A DNA stretch of 32,708 bases, the filler included, from Candidatus Woesearchaeota archaeon (GTDB taxonomy: Archaea > Nanobdellota > Nanobdellia > Woesearchaeales > GCA-2687795): NCBI GenBank assembly GCA_030753365.1. It is 3 parts of 3 records of this genome, joined end to end, with 100 filler letters (N's around TTAATTAATTAA, not from the genome) between each part and the next. Parts side by side here need not be neighbours in the genome. Positions count along the whole stretch, not along the records: positions 1 to 13,697 come from JASMCJ010000074.1; 2 more parts are not named here. One strand, written 5' to 3'. Below, piece by piece: positions 1-12,000 of this stretch (positions are counted from its first letter, which is position 1; each line of letters opens with the position of its first letter). The position numbers were made by a program.

Positions 1-3000
1 AGACCTTAGTTTAGAGAAAATCAATGAAATTAAAACAAAGAAAAGTAAAGCTCTTGATATTAACCTTAAGAGAGCTTTCAAGGAGGATAACACTGAGAAA
101 TGGAACATTTATTTCAACAGCTCTAATGTTGGCTTCCTTAACATTAGGTATGGCGAGAAGGTTGAGATTGATCTTGTTGCTGATGAAAGTTTCAGGTTTT
201 TAGAGAAACAACTGCTTGAAGAGCTTAACACTGTTCTTGGCCTCACAAAGATAAGTAGAGAGATCTTGTTTAACAATTATTATTTTGCTCATCATTCTCA
301 TAAGAAACTCAAGAGCAAAAAGCCAAGAAAATTAGTTCTGGGAAATATTGAGATTGGCATGGGATTTAGGGAATAGAATTATTTTTCTTCAGGTATAATT
401 ATCCAGCATATAATATAAGCAAGAATTCCTGAACCTCCTACAAAAGTAAACAAAACCCATGCTAGCCTTATCAATGTTGGATCAATCCCAAAATATTCTC
501 CTATACCGCCGCACACTCCTCCTAATACTCTATTACTTCTGCTTCTGTAAAGCCGTTTAGTTCCTTTGCCGAATTTCTTCTTTTTAAATGATTTATAGTT
601 TTTATTCACTTTCACAAATAATAGATATATTAATGCTCCTATAAAATTAATGAATATAATAATCAACACCCATATAAGCTTATCGGTAGTATCCAGTTCT
701 GATTTAATACAATCTATCAACATCCAAAGCCAGAATAAGAAAAAGAATAACATCAATGGCAGCATGAACATAGCAAGTCCAACTGTTAAAATCGGTGCAA
801 AGGCTATCCTGAACATTTTAAATCATCCCTTCTCCTTCTGTTTCTTCTCTTAAAGTGCAAATCTTCTTTAAATCCCAGTATACATTGCATTCCTTGCCAA
901 ATTTGTTCCATTTCCAGCAGCCCATGCAGCATGGACTTTCAACCTCTTTTTCCATTTTATATTAATCATAATAACAAAAAAATATAAAGCTTTTGTTTTT
1001 ATATACTCTTATGTTGTTTAACAAAGGCAAACTTATACCATAAAAGCAATGATAATAGTATATCAAGAAGTAAGATTGTTAGGCTCTTTTAAAGCAATGA
1101 TAATCAAAGCCTGGATGATTACGTTCAATAGATTTTCCATTTTCATATTCTCCTACAACTACAATACGGGCACTATCTACTAATGTTATAATTGACTTAT
1201 CAAAACATTTTGTGTCCAATAATTCACTGATTGGTAGACCAAGCTTGGTTTGGTCTGGATAGAATGAGCCATACATATTCAGGCAGTCTTTTAATGTCTT
1301 AACATAGAACTTCTTTATAGACTCTGAGCTTATTGAAGGTAGTATCTTCTCAACTATATAACTTCCACCACCTTTTAGCTTATAATCAGAGTCTCCTTTC
1401 TGATATATTAATTCATGCCCTTTTCTAAGTTTTAATGCTTCTGCTAATGTTAACTCTGTTAGGCTTCTCATAGGTATATTCATTTTATTTATTTAGAATA
1501 GAGTATCTTTTTTAAATTTACCTCTCAATTAGTAGTAGTTTAGATTATTTTCTTTTTAATTAACTTTATAAACAATCTAACCTTATTCTGTTATATGACT
1601 TCACTAAGCTTAGATTTAAATAAATCCATTGAAAAGAATGCTTCTGTTTACTATGATAAGGCAAAGAAGTTTAAGAAGAAGCTGGCTGGAGCAGAGGAAG
1701 CTCTTAAGAAAACAAAAAGTAAGCTGACCAAGCTTGAAAAACAGAAGAAGTTTGCTGATAATACTTTCCAACAGCAAAAAGAAGTAAAGTCAAGAGAAAA
1801 GAAATGGTATGAGAAGTTCAGATGGTTTATTTCTTCAGAAGGTTTTCTTGTTATTGGCGGCAGAGATGCAACAACCAATGATATTATAATAAAAAAGCAT
1901 ACAGAACCTGATGATGTTGTGTTCCATACAGAGATGCCAGGTTCTCCTTTCTGTGTTATCAAGACTGAAGGCAAGAAGCCTGGCAAGGCAACTTTAGAGG
2001 AAACTGCCCAGTTCTGCGCTGTTAATTCAAGAGCTTTCAGGAGAGGCCTTTTGACCGCAGAGGTTTATCATATCAATCCAGAACAGGTTTCAAAGGAAGC
2101 TCAGAGCGGTGAATATCTAAGTAAAGGTTCTTTTATGATTTATGGTAAAAAGAATTATATTACTGCAGAAGTCAAAACTTTTATTGGAATTCTTGAAGAT
2201 GGCAGTGTTATGTCTGCTTCAGAATCAGCTATGAAGAAACATTGCAAAGCTTATCTTGGCATTGTGGCAGGCAACTCAAAGAAGAGCGAGGTTGCCAAGA
2301 AGCTCCAGAAGTTCTTTATAGAAAAAACAAAGCTCAAAGCAGTCCTTGATGAGATCATGCAGGCATTACCTCCTGGTGATTGCAGGGTTGTTTAACAAAA
2401 CCTTTTTATCCTTCTTTAGACTTCTTCTTTTAAATGAGGCATAATACCAGGAAAGTAAAAGTTGGAAAGATATTCATTGGAAGCAACTCTCCTATTTCTA
2501 TCCAGTCAATGTGCAACACTAAGACTTCTGATATTAAAGCTACATTAAACCAAATCAATGAATTAAAAGAGGCTGGCTGTGAAATCATTAGAGTAGCAGT
2601 TCCGGATAAAGAAAGCGTAGAAGCATTAAGAACAATAAAAGAAAACATCACTCTTCCTTTAGTTGCAGACATTCATTTTGACCATAACCTAGCGATTGCT
2701 TCATTAAAGTATGCTGACAAGATTAGAATCAACCCAGGAAATATAGGAAGCATGGATAAAGTAAAAGAAATAATTGAAGCAGCAAAGGAATATCAAAAGT
2801 CTATAAGAATCGGTATCAACTCAGGCTCTTTAGAACAGGATTTAATAAATAAATATGGTGTAAACGAGCTTTCAATGGTTGAATCCTGTTTAAGATACAT
2901 TAAATTCTTTGAAGCTAACGATTTCTATAATATTATTCTTTCATTAAAATCATCTGATGTTACAACAACAATAAAAGCATATCAATTAATCTCAGAAAAG

Positions 3001-9000: not shown

Positions 9001-12000
9001 TGCAACAAGACAGAGGCAGGAAGCTGCAGCAGAGCTTGCTAAAACAATGGATTTAGTTATAGTTATTGGTGGCTATAATAGCGCAAATACAGTAAAGCTA
9101 AAGGACATTTGCTCAGAAATCACTGAAACAAAGCATATTGAGTCAACTAATGAATTGAAAGAAGAATGGTTCAAAGGTAAGCAAAACATAGGTATCACTG
9201 CTGGAGCTTCTACTCCTGAATGGGTTATTGAAGAGGTTGTTGAGAAAATAAGCTCATTCTAGCAAAACCTTTATAAAGCGAATTTAATTCGTCATATATA
9301 CTATAGGGGGAATTACAAAATGGCAGATCAACAAGTACAACCAATATTTATTTTACCAGAAGGGACACAGAGAACTTCTGGCAAGAATGCTCAAAGAACT
9401 AATATTATGGCAGCTAAGTTAGTAGCTGAGACTGTTAGAACTACTTTAGGCCCTAAGGGTATGGATAAGATGTTGGTTGATTCTTTAGGAGATGTTACTG
9501 TTACTAATGATGGTGTTACAATTCTTGAAGAGATGAACATTGAACATCCTTCTGCAAAAATGATTGTTGAGGTTGCCAAGACTCAGGAAGATGAGGTTGG
9601 CGATGGAACTACAACTGCAGTGATTCTTGCAGGAGAATTGCTTAAGAACGCAGAAATCTTGTTAGATCAGGATATCCATCCTACTGTTATTGCAAAAGGT
9701 TATAGGATTGCTGCAAATAAATCACAGGAAGTTCTCAACCAGATTGCTGAAAAGATAACTGAAAAGGATGAAGATCTTCTTAAAAATATTGCAACCACCG
9801 CTATGACTGGCAAAGGCGCTGAATCTTCAAAGGAAAAGCTTGCAGAGCTAGCAGTTAGGGCTGTTAAACAGGTTATGGATACTGAGAATGGTGTTTTTAT
9901 TGATAAGGATAATATTAAGATTGAAAAGAAAGTTGGAAGTTCTGTTGATAATTCTGAGTTAATCCAGGGCATTGCCATTGACAAGGAAAAGGTTCATTCA
10001 GGCATGCCAAGACTGGTTAAGAATGCAAAGATTGCATTGATTGATTCTGCTGTAGAGGTTAAGAGCACTGAAACTGATGCTAAGATACAGATTAATGATC
10101 CTAACCAGATGCAGGCTTTCCTTGACCAGGAAGAGAAGATGCTTAAGGATATGGTTGAAAAGATTGTTAAGAGCAATGCTAATGTTGTTTTCTGCCAGAA
10201 AGGCATTGACGACATTGCCCAGCATTTCCTTGCAAAGAAAGGCATTTATGCTTCAAGAAGGGTTAAGAAGAGTGATATGGAAGGCCTTTCAAGGGCTACA
10301 GGCGCTAAGATTATTACTAACTTAGATGACTTGTCTGCTGCAGATTTAGGTAAGGCAGGCATTGTTGAAGAGACTAAGATAGGCGATGAAGATATGACTA
10401 TTGTAAAAGAGTGCAAGAACCCAAGAGCTGTAACTCTTTTGGTTAGAGGAGCTACAGAACATGTTATTGATGAGGTTAAACGAGCTGTTGAAGATGCTAT
10501 TGGTGATGTGTCAGCAGCTTTGAAGAATAATAAAGTTGTTGCAGGCGCAGGCTCTCCTGAGATTGAGCTTGCCAGAAATTTAAGAAAGTTTTCCGAAAGC
10601 TTATCAGGAAGAGAGCAATTAGCTGTCCAGGCTTTTGCAGATTCTGTTGAGATTATCCCAAGAACTTTAGCAGAGAATGCTGGCTTAGACCCTATAGACA
10701 TTCTTACAGAACTTAAAGCAGCGCATGACAAAGATAAGAAATGGCATGGTATTGACGTTTTCACAGGTAAAATTGTTGATGCTTGGAGCAAGGGCGTTTT
10801 AGAGCCTTTAAAAATCAAGACTCAGGCTGTTAGCTCAGCTAGTGAGGTTGCAATCATGATTTTAAGGATTGATGATCTTATTGCATCTTCAGGCGGAGGA
10901 GCTAAAGGCGGTATGCCAGATATGATGCCTCCTGGTGGAATGCCTCCAGGATACTAACCTTCTTCTTTCCCAACATTCATTTTCAAGAAATACTTTGAAA
11001 GCTTTATCATAATAGTTGATGTAATTATTGAATATAATATGAATGCCAAGCTTAAGTTAAGAACAACTTGAGCTCCTGGTAATGATATAAACGGAACAGT
11101 TACAAGATTTCCTATTCCTTTTACTATTTCTGTTGTTGTGAACATATAAGTTGTCAATATGAATATTACCACTGCTACTGCTATGCCTTTCTGGACATTA
11201 AAAGACATGAATATCCTTTCTCTTAAGTTATACTCTTTAGAAAATAATAGCTGGATTGTGCCAAACCTTATTATCAGATATATAAGGAATAGTGTAAATG
11301 ATTTAACTAGAAATCTTGTGTTTAACGGAATGTTAATTATAAACCCTACTAGCACAAACACTAATATTTGCAGTGAGCTTGCAAACACGCTTGAAAACTC
11401 CTGCAAAACATTCTTTTCCTTTAGATAAACATTGCCAAAGAAGATTCCCATCACTGTTACAGCAAGTACACCATTGCCACCAAGGTTTTCTGCCAGGATA
11501 TATGTTAGCAATGTGGCTGTTATGATTGCCAAAGGACTTAATGTTTCTGAATACTTCCTTTTCATTAGCTTAAATACTATTATTCCTACTAATATGCCTG
11601 CTCCTATCCCTGCAACAAATTGCTGTAAGAAAGGTGATATTTGTTCTATGATTTTTGACATTACTAATTCTTTCTTTATGGTTCCCATAAGGTCTAATAT
11701 TATGAATGGCATCAGAACTATAAGAGGAGTATTGATTATTGATTCTATTTCCAGCATTTCTATTACTTTATTTTTGGTTTGTTTGAACATTGTAAACACT
11801 GTTGAAGGATCTGTGCCAGACATTAATGCTGCAAACATCACAGCAAGGTAATATGAAGGTATTTTGAATATCATTACTGCAAAGAAAGAAAGGAATATCA
11901 TGTTTGCCAGAAGGAACACGGCAGATAATTTTAATGTTTTAACTGAAAACAGATCAAATTCTTTCATCTTTAGCCTTGAAGACGAATCAAACACTATCAT

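Follow-up and report, generated by a model that had tools for sequence, protein, structure and literature searches.

Complete MEP and mevalonate operons alternate at one chromosomal slot within a Woesearchaeales genus

Introduction

Use of the mevalonate (MVA) or the MEP pathway is taken as a marker at the level of domains, linked to the lipid divide. In the present case, two archaeal species of one genus, whose proteins share ~72-76% amino-acid identity, have different whole pathways at one site and the same downstream prenyltransferases. How did an entire isoprenoid pathway come to stand where a close relative has the other, and which of the two was there first?

The sequence that we analysed (the window, 32,708 nucleotides) consists of three contigs linked by runs of N, and only positions 1-13697 are contig C74. 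It comes from genome G000, that of a tiny marine archaeon, which we compared with its congener G001 (locus L031 on contig C23, called G027:C23 in the initial annotation) and with a third species, L175. G000 is 94.5% and G001 75% complete; both are fragmented metagenome bins, and G001 has low-quality stretches elsewhere in its bin. Neither bin had a match to rpoB, and EF-2 served as the species marker in its place.

Results

A complete MEP operon lies between rqcH and a thermosome gene

The initial annotation described a seven-gene MEP operon between the Rqc2 C-part gene and the thermosome gene, and profile searches bore this out for all seven genes and identified both flanks:

1595..2395, + strand: stand-alone C-terminal part of archaeal RqcH/Rqc2 (rqcH-C, NFACT-R domain), 266 aa; NF041120 positions 381-644 of 645, PF05670
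2396..2433, + strand: left border of the replaced block, CAAAACCTTTTTAT, directly 3' of the rqcH stop codon; the same in L175
2434..3471, + strand: ispG, HMBPP synthase, 345 aa; TIGR00612 and NF001540, both over cut-off
3473..5323, + strand: dxs, DXP synthase, 616 aa; TIGR00204
5320..6459, + strand: dxr, DXP reductoisomerase, 379 aa; TIGR00243
6456..7145, + strand: ispD, a separate gene, 229 aa; TIGR00453
7138..7614, + strand: ispF, 158 aa; TIGR00151
7608..8453, + strand: ispE, 281 aa; TIGR00154, and 8 of 8 PDB sequence matches are IspE
8450..9262, + strand: ispH, 270 aa; TIGR00216; stop codon immediately before the promoter motif of the thermosome gene
9263..9319, + strand: right border, with two motifs of the thermosome gene, CAAAACCTTTATAAA and the ribosome-binding-like GGGGG; common to G001, homology resumes here
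9320..10957, + strand: thermosome subunit, 545 aa, 92% aa identity to G001; NF041082, NF041083, TIGR02339
10954..12207, - strand: cation/proton antiporter, 79% aa identity to its syntenic counterpart in G001; converges on the thermosome gene

All seven enzymes exceeded curated NCBIfam cut-offs, six through the correctly named TIGR model and ispG through both of its models (bits/cut-off: ispG 426/280, dxs 867/466, dxr 507/316, ispD 224/181, ispF 181/116, ispE 171/139, ispH 278/188). RqcH-C scored below the whole-protein cut-off because it is only part of the protein. The MEP reading frames contain no internal stops, and six of the genes are under purifying selection relative to L175 (dN/dS 0.06-0.14; ispG, 0.06); dxr has no partner there, since L175 carries the same operon with precisely dxr missing. 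Putative Fe-S cluster cysteines of IspG and IspH were assigned by eye from their motifs; SufB/D had no match in G000 or G001. The left border CAAAACCTTTTTAT is presumably promoter-like, with a BRE/TATA-like motif, and the 10-mer CAAAACCTTT within it recurs at the right border and is found in 6 of the 622 upstream regions of G000.

The congener has a mevalonate operon in the same slot

Realignment of the window with G001 reproduced the flank identities of 84% and 79% reported before (84.1% nt over 1557-2395 and 78.6% nt over 9263-12222), with nothing alignable between. Homology stops at the stop codon of rqcH-C (89% aa identity) and resumes at the thermosome promoter, so that the slot has clean borders on both sides. 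Between these flanks, L031 encodes HMG-CoA synthase (HMGS), thiolase, a DUF35 protein, diphosphomevalonate decarboxylase (DPMD), a GHMP kinase, class I HMGR, mevalonate kinase (MVK) and IDI1, together with two features absent from the earlier gene list, an HD-domain gene and an ORF of 75 aa. The earlier names for this sister operon hold by profile search: thiolase, HMGS, HMGR, MVK, DPMD and IDI each passed a curated cut-off (NF004720, TIGR00748, TIGR00533, TIGR00549, TIGR01240 and TIGR02150, respectively). The GHMP kinase had as its best model the phosphomevalonate kinase (PMK) NF040957, at 126 bits against a cut-off of 500, and adjoins the DPMD gene; from this match and this position we call it PMK-like. 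Two complete, non-homologous operons, MEP and eukaryote-type MVA (with the PMK-like kinase as putative phosphomevalonate kinase), alternate at one slot between rqcH-C and the thermosome gene.

No MVA genes were found in G000 (94.5% complete). In G001, the search for MEP remnants gave a best DNA E value of 0.12, no LytB and, in 668 kb, only a transketolase-like match; because G001 is 75% complete, MEP genes could lie elsewhere in its genome. The HD gene of G001 was considered as a relic of a MEP operon, as HD genes lie beside or are fused to ispE in G039, G073 and G299. These are 26-31% identical to it, and G245 and G295, both of which lack a dxr or HMGR match, have homologues nearer to it (45%); the idea was rejected.

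Both genomes encode cis- and trans-prenyltransferases (PF01255 and PF00348), the trans enzyme being orthologous and syntenic; reading the G001 copy as a pseudogene was discarded, as its frameshifts fall in N-rich sequence. GGGP synthase (PF01884) and G1P dehydrogenase (PF13685) were found in neither of the two genomes (94.5% and 75% complete). IPP/DMAPP would here probably go into polyprenyl-phosphate sugar carriers and not into ether lipids. A swap would be possible because both routes end in IPP/DMAPP, and the pair argues that the two are interchangeable in these cells.

HMGS and dxs point to a probable replacement of MVA by MEP

The initial annotation left the direction of replacement open; it is now likely to have been from MVA to MEP, given a pairing of HMGS with rqcH by equal contig size and a foreign dxs. 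The 90% cluster of G001 HMGS has four members, two of which (P0392 and P0393) have longest contigs of 14,636 (ENA) and 262,749 (JGI) bases, the same sizes and sources as the contigs of the two closest uncharacterised rqcH relatives, P0124 (14,636) and P0126 (262,749). The pairing of P0392 with P0124 and P0393 with P0126 is one of contig size, not of DNA that was seen. The rqcH tree has P0126 as outgroup and G001 as the next branch, and it unites P0124 with G000 and L175 (86/92 and 94/90). Consistent with this order, P0392 and P0393 are 92% and 89% identical to G001 HMGS. Contigs of 14,636 or 262,749 bases were absent from the best 120 matches for dxr or ispG and from the clusters of dxs, ispG, dxr, ispF, L175 ispD and L175 ispH; they were likewise absent from the clusters of G001 thiolase, decarboxylase, HMGR and IDI. 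HMGS is thus the one polarity link, and the 263-kb contig does not fix its position.

The gene trees bear on the origin of the MEP genes. In the dxs trees (one of them a quick tree), the window dxs groups with G065 and G299 (support 98-100), which sit in another EF-2 clade, and not with its EF-2 neighbours. Constraining dxs to those neighbours was rejected (p-AU 9.5e-6; 16 rows, test picked after the tree was seen). The placements of ispG (92) and ispF (99) agree with that of dxs, and the gene order ispG-dxs-dxr is common to G065 and G299. The remaining genes differ: ispE groups with G039, the placement of ispD lacks resolution, and ispH falls apart from G065/G299 (p-AU 0.012), nearest to the neighbours G075 and G141. 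When Micrarchaeota were added to the dxr tree, the window dxr still fell outside the neighbours' clade and no longer grouped with G065/G299; Micrarchaeota were rejected as its donor, as dxr occurs in 13 of 101 and none is sister to the window gene. Among the matches listed, IspG has no relative between 66% and its 90% cluster. What we found does not fit a vertically inherited MEP cluster of the Woesearchaeota subgroup-J type, given the rejected dxs constraint and the separate ispD and ispF; ispH is the exception.

From these data we favor a reading in which the window MEP operon was probably acquired horizontally and displaced an MVA operon that was probably ancestral to the genus at the same slot. 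MVA would be the older state, a single replacement would have occurred on the branch leading to G000 and L175, and the donor would likely be another Woesearchaeales lineage with an ispG-dxs-dxr-type operon. The incoming operon most likely landed at the edge of genes that it made redundant and that were later deleted, which would be why the replacement was in place. The 10-bp repeat at both borders weakly suggests that the operon inserted at the thermosome promoter and captured a promoter copy.

The reverse order, in which the genus inherited the MEP genes of its clade and the G001 branch imported an MVA operon into the slot, is unlikely. In its favor, the EF-2 clade of 26 rows (not random) includes 24 other genomes, of which 18 have dxr and 1 has HMGR, ispH is nearest to the neighbours, and an orphan dxr, P0002, 78% identical to the window dxr among the matches listed, is about as deep as the split between G000 and G001. 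Full MVA families (f59, f67, f90 and f99) also exist in another clade. Against it stand the HMGS pairing by equal contig size, for both the outgroup and a relative that lies nearer to G000 than does G001, and a window dxs that is not of the neighbours' type. An ancestral MEP state inferred by parsimony from dxr presence was likewise weakened once the window dxs proved unlike that type. HMGS, thiolase and HMGR of G001 sit on long stems next to f67/f99/f59, a placement as compatible with retention as with transfer, and a thiolase search of the phylum returned only f59/f67 (11/251) and no closer relative of the G001 MVA genes. Such a change from MEP to MVA may instead have been an earlier switch on the genus stem.

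A single replacement would account for the slot

The initial annotation spoke of exchangeable cassettes, which goes too far. The window lacks a tRNA, and the ORFs scanned around the slot include neither an integrase nor a transposase. There is no empty-site form in four runs or among 80 rqcH loci, and no att-like repeat at the slot other than the 10-bp border repeat. The slot therefore lacks the marks of a mobile cassette or of a genomic island, and the data are consistent with a single replacement.

It is quite improbable that congeners exchange the block repeatedly, with rqcH and the thermosome gene as sites of homologous recombination and the operons circulating as alleles, although the conserved flanks (84% and 79% nt) would allow it. 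Because the rqcH tree does not order P0124, L175 and G000, more than one event is possible. One rqcH, P0369, matches L175 in its first half (0/135 differences) and G001 in its second (0/131), but it lies on one contig of 3,590 bases and an assembly chimera explains it as easily. Moreover, G000 and L175 are no less diverged in their MEP genes than in the flanks (dS 0.27-0.89 versus 0.35-0.39; flank dS to G001, 0.88-1.04), and one event accounts for all five lineages.

It is very improbable that the two operons inserted independently into an empty or variable site and share its position by coincidence. The other side of rqcH also differs between G000 and G001, unmatched DNA exceeds 1 kb in both genomes for 19 of 235 colinear orthologue pairs, and no MEP or MVA genes lie within 1.5 kb of the thermosome gene in other genomes (28 loci). 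However, the MEP/MVA slot is the only one of the 235 with more than 5 kb unmatched in both, its two fillings make the same product, the four runs and 80 rqcH loci gave no empty-site joint, and the equal-size HMGS pairing falls on both sides of the G001 branch.

An artefact, in which assembly or binning of fragmented metagenome bins (one with low-quality stretches elsewhere) fused a bacterial operon to an archaeal contig, is refuted for the window by L174, another assembly, 99.6% identical over window 2-10278, by L175, by L176, which reproduces the G001 rqcH-to-HMGS junction at 100%, and by contigs of other studies (four runs from four studies) that bridge the left MEP junction in two runs and the right in three. 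Host-like codon usage and archaeal closest dxs relatives also speak against it. The right junction of G001, from the HD gene to the thermosome gene, was seen only in the G001 contig itself. In codon usage and GC3, the seven MEP and eight MVA genes lie within ~2 SD of 238 core genes; being host-like for both operons, these measures are uninformative as a clock or as a signal of direction.

Discussion

We favor a single replacement of an MVA operon by a horizontally acquired MEP operon. A broader proposal is that the ispG-dxs-dxr-type operon is a portable module that repeatedly overwrites resident MVA operons in situ in Woesearchaeales, here through a thermosome promoter copy, in a genus that switched twice (from clade MEP to MVA to a different MEP). 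This is conceivable though doubtful; in family f99, the ispG-dxs-dxr-type operon of G299 lies just past a phosphoesterase-uppS pair, and the MVA operon of G099 follows the same pair. If it were true, non-homologous pathway displacement in situ would be a recurrent process.

The locus argues that presence/absence mapping misreads pathway history: presence alone would make MEP ancestral, while gene trees and close relatives point to MEP import. What selects one route over the other is left open in a 2026 review (PMC13001223). The G000/G001 pair offers a natural experiment on this choice (cost in carbon versus cost in reductant, Fe-S dependence) and on the way in which an operon reaches the site of the non-homologous one that it replaced.

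Gene displacement in situ is a feature of mosaic operons, in which foreign sequence takes the position of the resident function, and it is known for homologous genes. Unlike those cases, the MEP and MVA operons share no alignable DNA. Our literature search found no report of a same-site MEP/MVA operon swap in archaea, and supplements may list such loci. The earlier claim of novelty, a replacement within a genus, is accordingly kept for an operon-for-operon replacement at one site in an archaeal genus; it was too wide at the genus level, since the literature already contains bacterial genera that have both types of pathway (PMC5040788, PMC13001223).

MEP gene clusters in Woesearchaeota have been published (Castelle et al. 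2021, PMC8204110; Huang et al. 2021, PMC8421398), and we found dxr in 59 of 401 Woesearchaeales genomes. Like those clusters, the window operon encodes a complete, co-located bacterial-type pathway in a Woesearchaeales genome without GGGP synthase. It differs in order and structure, with ispG-dxs-dxr and separate ispD and ispF rather than the usual dxs-ispG-dxr and the ispD-ispF fusion present in most Woesearchaeales clusters whose gene maps we saw. It also differs from them in a dxs of a second lineage and in a congener with MVA at the same site. Huang et al. (PMC8421398) describe only MEP in their Woesearchaeota, and Table S3 of Castelle et al. (PMC8204110) gives HMGR in 6.6% of 196.

The G001 operon resembles the eukaryote-type, DPMD-route MVA pathway described from Sulfolobales and some DPANN in two papers whose main text does not name Woesearchaeales (Hoshino and Gaucher 2018, PMC6107057; Zhu et al. 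2024, PMC11052028). It combines archaeal HMGS, thiolase and DUF35 with class I HMGR, MVK, a PMK-like kinase, DPMD and IDI1, and differs from those examples in forming one operon, in Woesearchaeales, at a slot shared with MEP. Finally, MEP/MVA divergence within a genus is on record for Staphylococcus (Misic et al. 2016, PMC5040788) and for Brachybacterium and others (Qabar et al. 2026, PMC13001223). As in those bacteria, congeners here use different routes to IPP; unlike them, both routes are single operons at one site, in archaea, and MEP is likely the newcomer.

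A mevalonate operon and an MEP operon at one slot

The initial annotation described a seven-gene MEP operon between the C-terminal part of rqcH and the thermosome gene, where a same-genus genome carries a mevalonate (MVA) operon, and our analysis bore this out. All seven genes of the operon (window 2396-9262; ispG-dxs-dxr-ispD-ispF-ispE-ispH) scored above curated cut-offs in profile searches (7/7), and neighboring genes are spaced by +1 to -8 bases. Both flanks are conserved in G001, the sole congener compared at genome level (75% complete): alignment with its contig L031 continues at 84.1% as far as the rqcH stop (2395), breaks off, and resumes at 78.6% at a thermosome promoter motif (9263); nothing in the block between these points aligns to L031. 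The G001 interval (8.7 kb) encodes HMGS, thiolase, DUF35, diphosphomevalonate decarboxylase, a PMK-like kinase (below cut-off), class I HMGR, mevalonate kinase and IDI1, and also contains an HD gene and a short ORF. No MVA genes were found in the source genome, G000 (897 kb, 94.5% complete; the window joins three of its contigs, with C74 at 1-13697). Neither dxr nor ispH was found in G001, from which a quarter of the genome is missing, and none of its DNA matched the MEP block. Among 235 colinear orthologue pairs drawn from 668 kb of G001 (of about 900), the slot alone has >5 kb unmatched in both genomes (1/235); 4 pairs have >3 kb and 19 have >1 kb.

Twenty public runs, spread over 15 studies, contain most of the stretch, and four of them may be its source; nearly all are metagenomes of marine, seawater or vent origin. 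Contigs with at most one difference bridge the left junction in runs X6 and X9 and the right junction in X6, X14 and X18; no joint skipping the block was found in these 4 runs of 4 studies. Three of 80 metagenome rqcH loci belong to close relatives. L174 is the same species as G000 (99.6%) with identical gene order, L176 repeats the left junction of G001, and L175 represents a third species (85-90% nt) with the order rqcH-ispG-dxs-ispD-ispF-ispE-ispH-thermosome, lacking dxr. Collectively, the same-slot arrangement is real, intact and well bounded; its component pathways were already known, and their arrangement is a new variant.

In L175, dxr is precisely missing (L175:7609-7612, equivalent to window 5320-6459) and the dxs stop overlaps the ispD start. 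The loss spans one ATGA overlap to the next; ~5 bases are shared there, too few for the assembly to have collapsed. The remaining six genes are under purifying selection, and dxr must be elsewhere in this organism or bypassed. P0002, a database dxr with 78% identity to the window's, is a candidate for the relocated gene; alternatively, it could point to MEP genes of greater age within the genus. Separately, the first half of one rqcH protein, P0369, is that of L175 and the second half that of G001, which reflects either genuine recombination between congeners or a chimeric assembly.

Elsewhere in the window, contig C77 carries a 105-base palindromic repeat (15079-15186) that folds into two hairpins; with 21 near-full copies across G000 at 97-100% identity, it is apparently young and MITE- or REP-like. 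Tandem paralogous membrane-protein genes lie at 27809-30235 and 30320-32635 (~84% DNA identity over 1.5 kb).

Direction of the probable replacement

An rqcH search yielded two further close relatives, P0124 (92%; longest contig 14,636) and P0126 (83%; 262,749). In the rqcH tree P0126 is the outgroup, followed by G001, and P0124, G000 and L175 form a group with unresolved internal order. The HMGS cluster of G001 has four members. For two of them (92% and 89% identical to G001's) the longest contig is 14,636 and 262,749, an exact match in length to P0124 and P0126 and from the same sources. Neither length occurs among the best 120 dxr matches, the best 120 ispG matches or the MEP clusters, nor in any of four other MVA clusters looked at. 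From one gene and equal longest-contig sizes, HMGS therefore likely occurs in lineages that branch on either side of G001, with MEP only in G000 and L175. Synonymous divergence between G000 and L175 is 0.35-0.39 in the flanks and 0.27-0.89 in the MEP genes, and that of the flanks to G001 is 0.88-1.04, which fits the same direction. We consider it probable that MEP replaced MVA at the slot. HMGS, thiolase and HMGR of G001 branch beside families f67, f99 and f59 on long stems; the MVA genes of the genus may have been kept from the order's ancestor or gained on the genus stem.

Origin of the MEP operon

Among 401 sampled genomes of the order, dxr is present in 59 (5 of them flagged unpublished and used for this tally alone) and HMGR in 25. 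G104 and G144 carry both and are possible dual-pathway archaea; their divergent HMGRs lie in long frames (L112, G144:C8, 1035 aa; L115, G104:C124, 502 aa) and are sisters in the tree. An EF-2 tree built from 70 chosen genomes places G000 and G001 within a 26-row clade (SH-aLRT 99) in which 18 of the 24 other members have dxr, and it places the MVA-rich families in a different clade. This pattern suggests that MEP was inherited, but the gene trees do not. A quick dxs tree rooted on 20 Clostridia divides Woesearchaeales into a clade of 19 rows including the EF-2 neighbors (99) and one of G000, L175, G065 and G299 (98), and constraining dxs of G000 with the EF-2 neighbors was rejected (p-AU 9.5e-6; 16 rows). 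The ispG (92) and ispF (99, with G039) trees agree, and G065 and G299 share the ispG-dxs-dxr order. The other genes speak against a single source for the whole operon: dxr groups with G065/G299 in a 16-row set (97) but loses this grouping once Micrarchaeota are added, ispE pairs with G039 (99), and placing ispH with G065/G299 was rejected (p-AU 0.012), G075/G141 being its nearest relatives. The ispD tree gave no resolved placement. On these trees the operon is a mosaic, with a front half that does not belong to the clade.

The window's IspE starts SYARITLAL (7608-7650), a variant shared with IspE of G039; bacterial IspE has A-K-x-N (lysine, asparagine) at this stretch. HD genes adjoin ispE in G039 and G073, and G299 has HD-domain/IspE and IspH/polyprenyl-synthase fusions (L389:9815-11158 and 11155-12810).

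A possible in-place step

In the route we favor, an incoming MEP operon would insert beside the resident MVA operon, and the redundant resident genes would then be deleted. The 10-mer CAAAACCTTT directly follows both the rqcH and ispH stops in G000 and L175, and in G001's contig occurs only at the thermosome promoter; of 622 upstream regions in G000, 6 contain it. Insertion at that promoter with a short duplication, which would give ispG a host promoter, is a tentative and rather doubtful origin of the repeat; it could equally have arisen by convergence on a promoter consensus.

A 70-base repeat (L031:11171-11240) marks the right border of G001's MVA block, where it separates the HD gene from the thermosome promoter; the G001 DNA examined has 5 more copies. 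A Cdc6/Orc1 gene ~2 kb upstream of rqcH-C (L175:573-1823; L174:6981-8192) indicates that the slot may be close to a replication origin.

A probable shared downstream pathway

IPP and DMAPP are the end products of both routes, as is well established (PMC13001223). A cis-prenyltransferase is kept in both genomes and a trans-prenyltransferase is orthologous between them, each away from the slot; GGGP synthase and G1P dehydrogenase had no match in either. As read from sequence, the neighbors of the single UbiA-family gene of G001 are a sugar-epimerase-like gene and one for a membrane protein. From these features we infer that the product feeds polyprenyl-phosphate carriers, putatively for surface glycosylation. 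SufB/D had no match across either genome, although Fe-S clusters are required by IspG, IspH and several proteins with ferredoxin motifs.

Comparison with known systems

At 28 other thermosome loci, MEP and MVA genes were absent from the surrounding 1.5 kb, and the slot is therefore specific to the genus; in two f59 genomes the thermosome gene is convergent, ~4 kb past the MVA operon. Family f99 offers a possible parallel: a phosphoesterase-uppS pair precedes MVA genes in G099 and, in G299, one ORF and then an ispG-dxs-dxr-type operon in opposite orientation. This parallel is weakened because uppS is itself an isoprenoid gene (functional clustering). In openly available papers, with few of their supplements, we found no report of MEP and MVA genes exchanged at the same site in archaea. 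Published work describes co-located MEP genes in 52 Woesearchaeota and, in its supplement, HMGR in 6.6% (PMC8204110), MEP in Micrarchaeota (PMC12892359) and intra-genus pathway diversity in bacteria (PMC13001223); we also drew on PMC8421398, PMC10936187, PMC6107057, PMC11052028 and PMC13473441. Unlike the operons at this slot, the pathway genes of Staphylococcus are dispersed, as described in PMC5040788.
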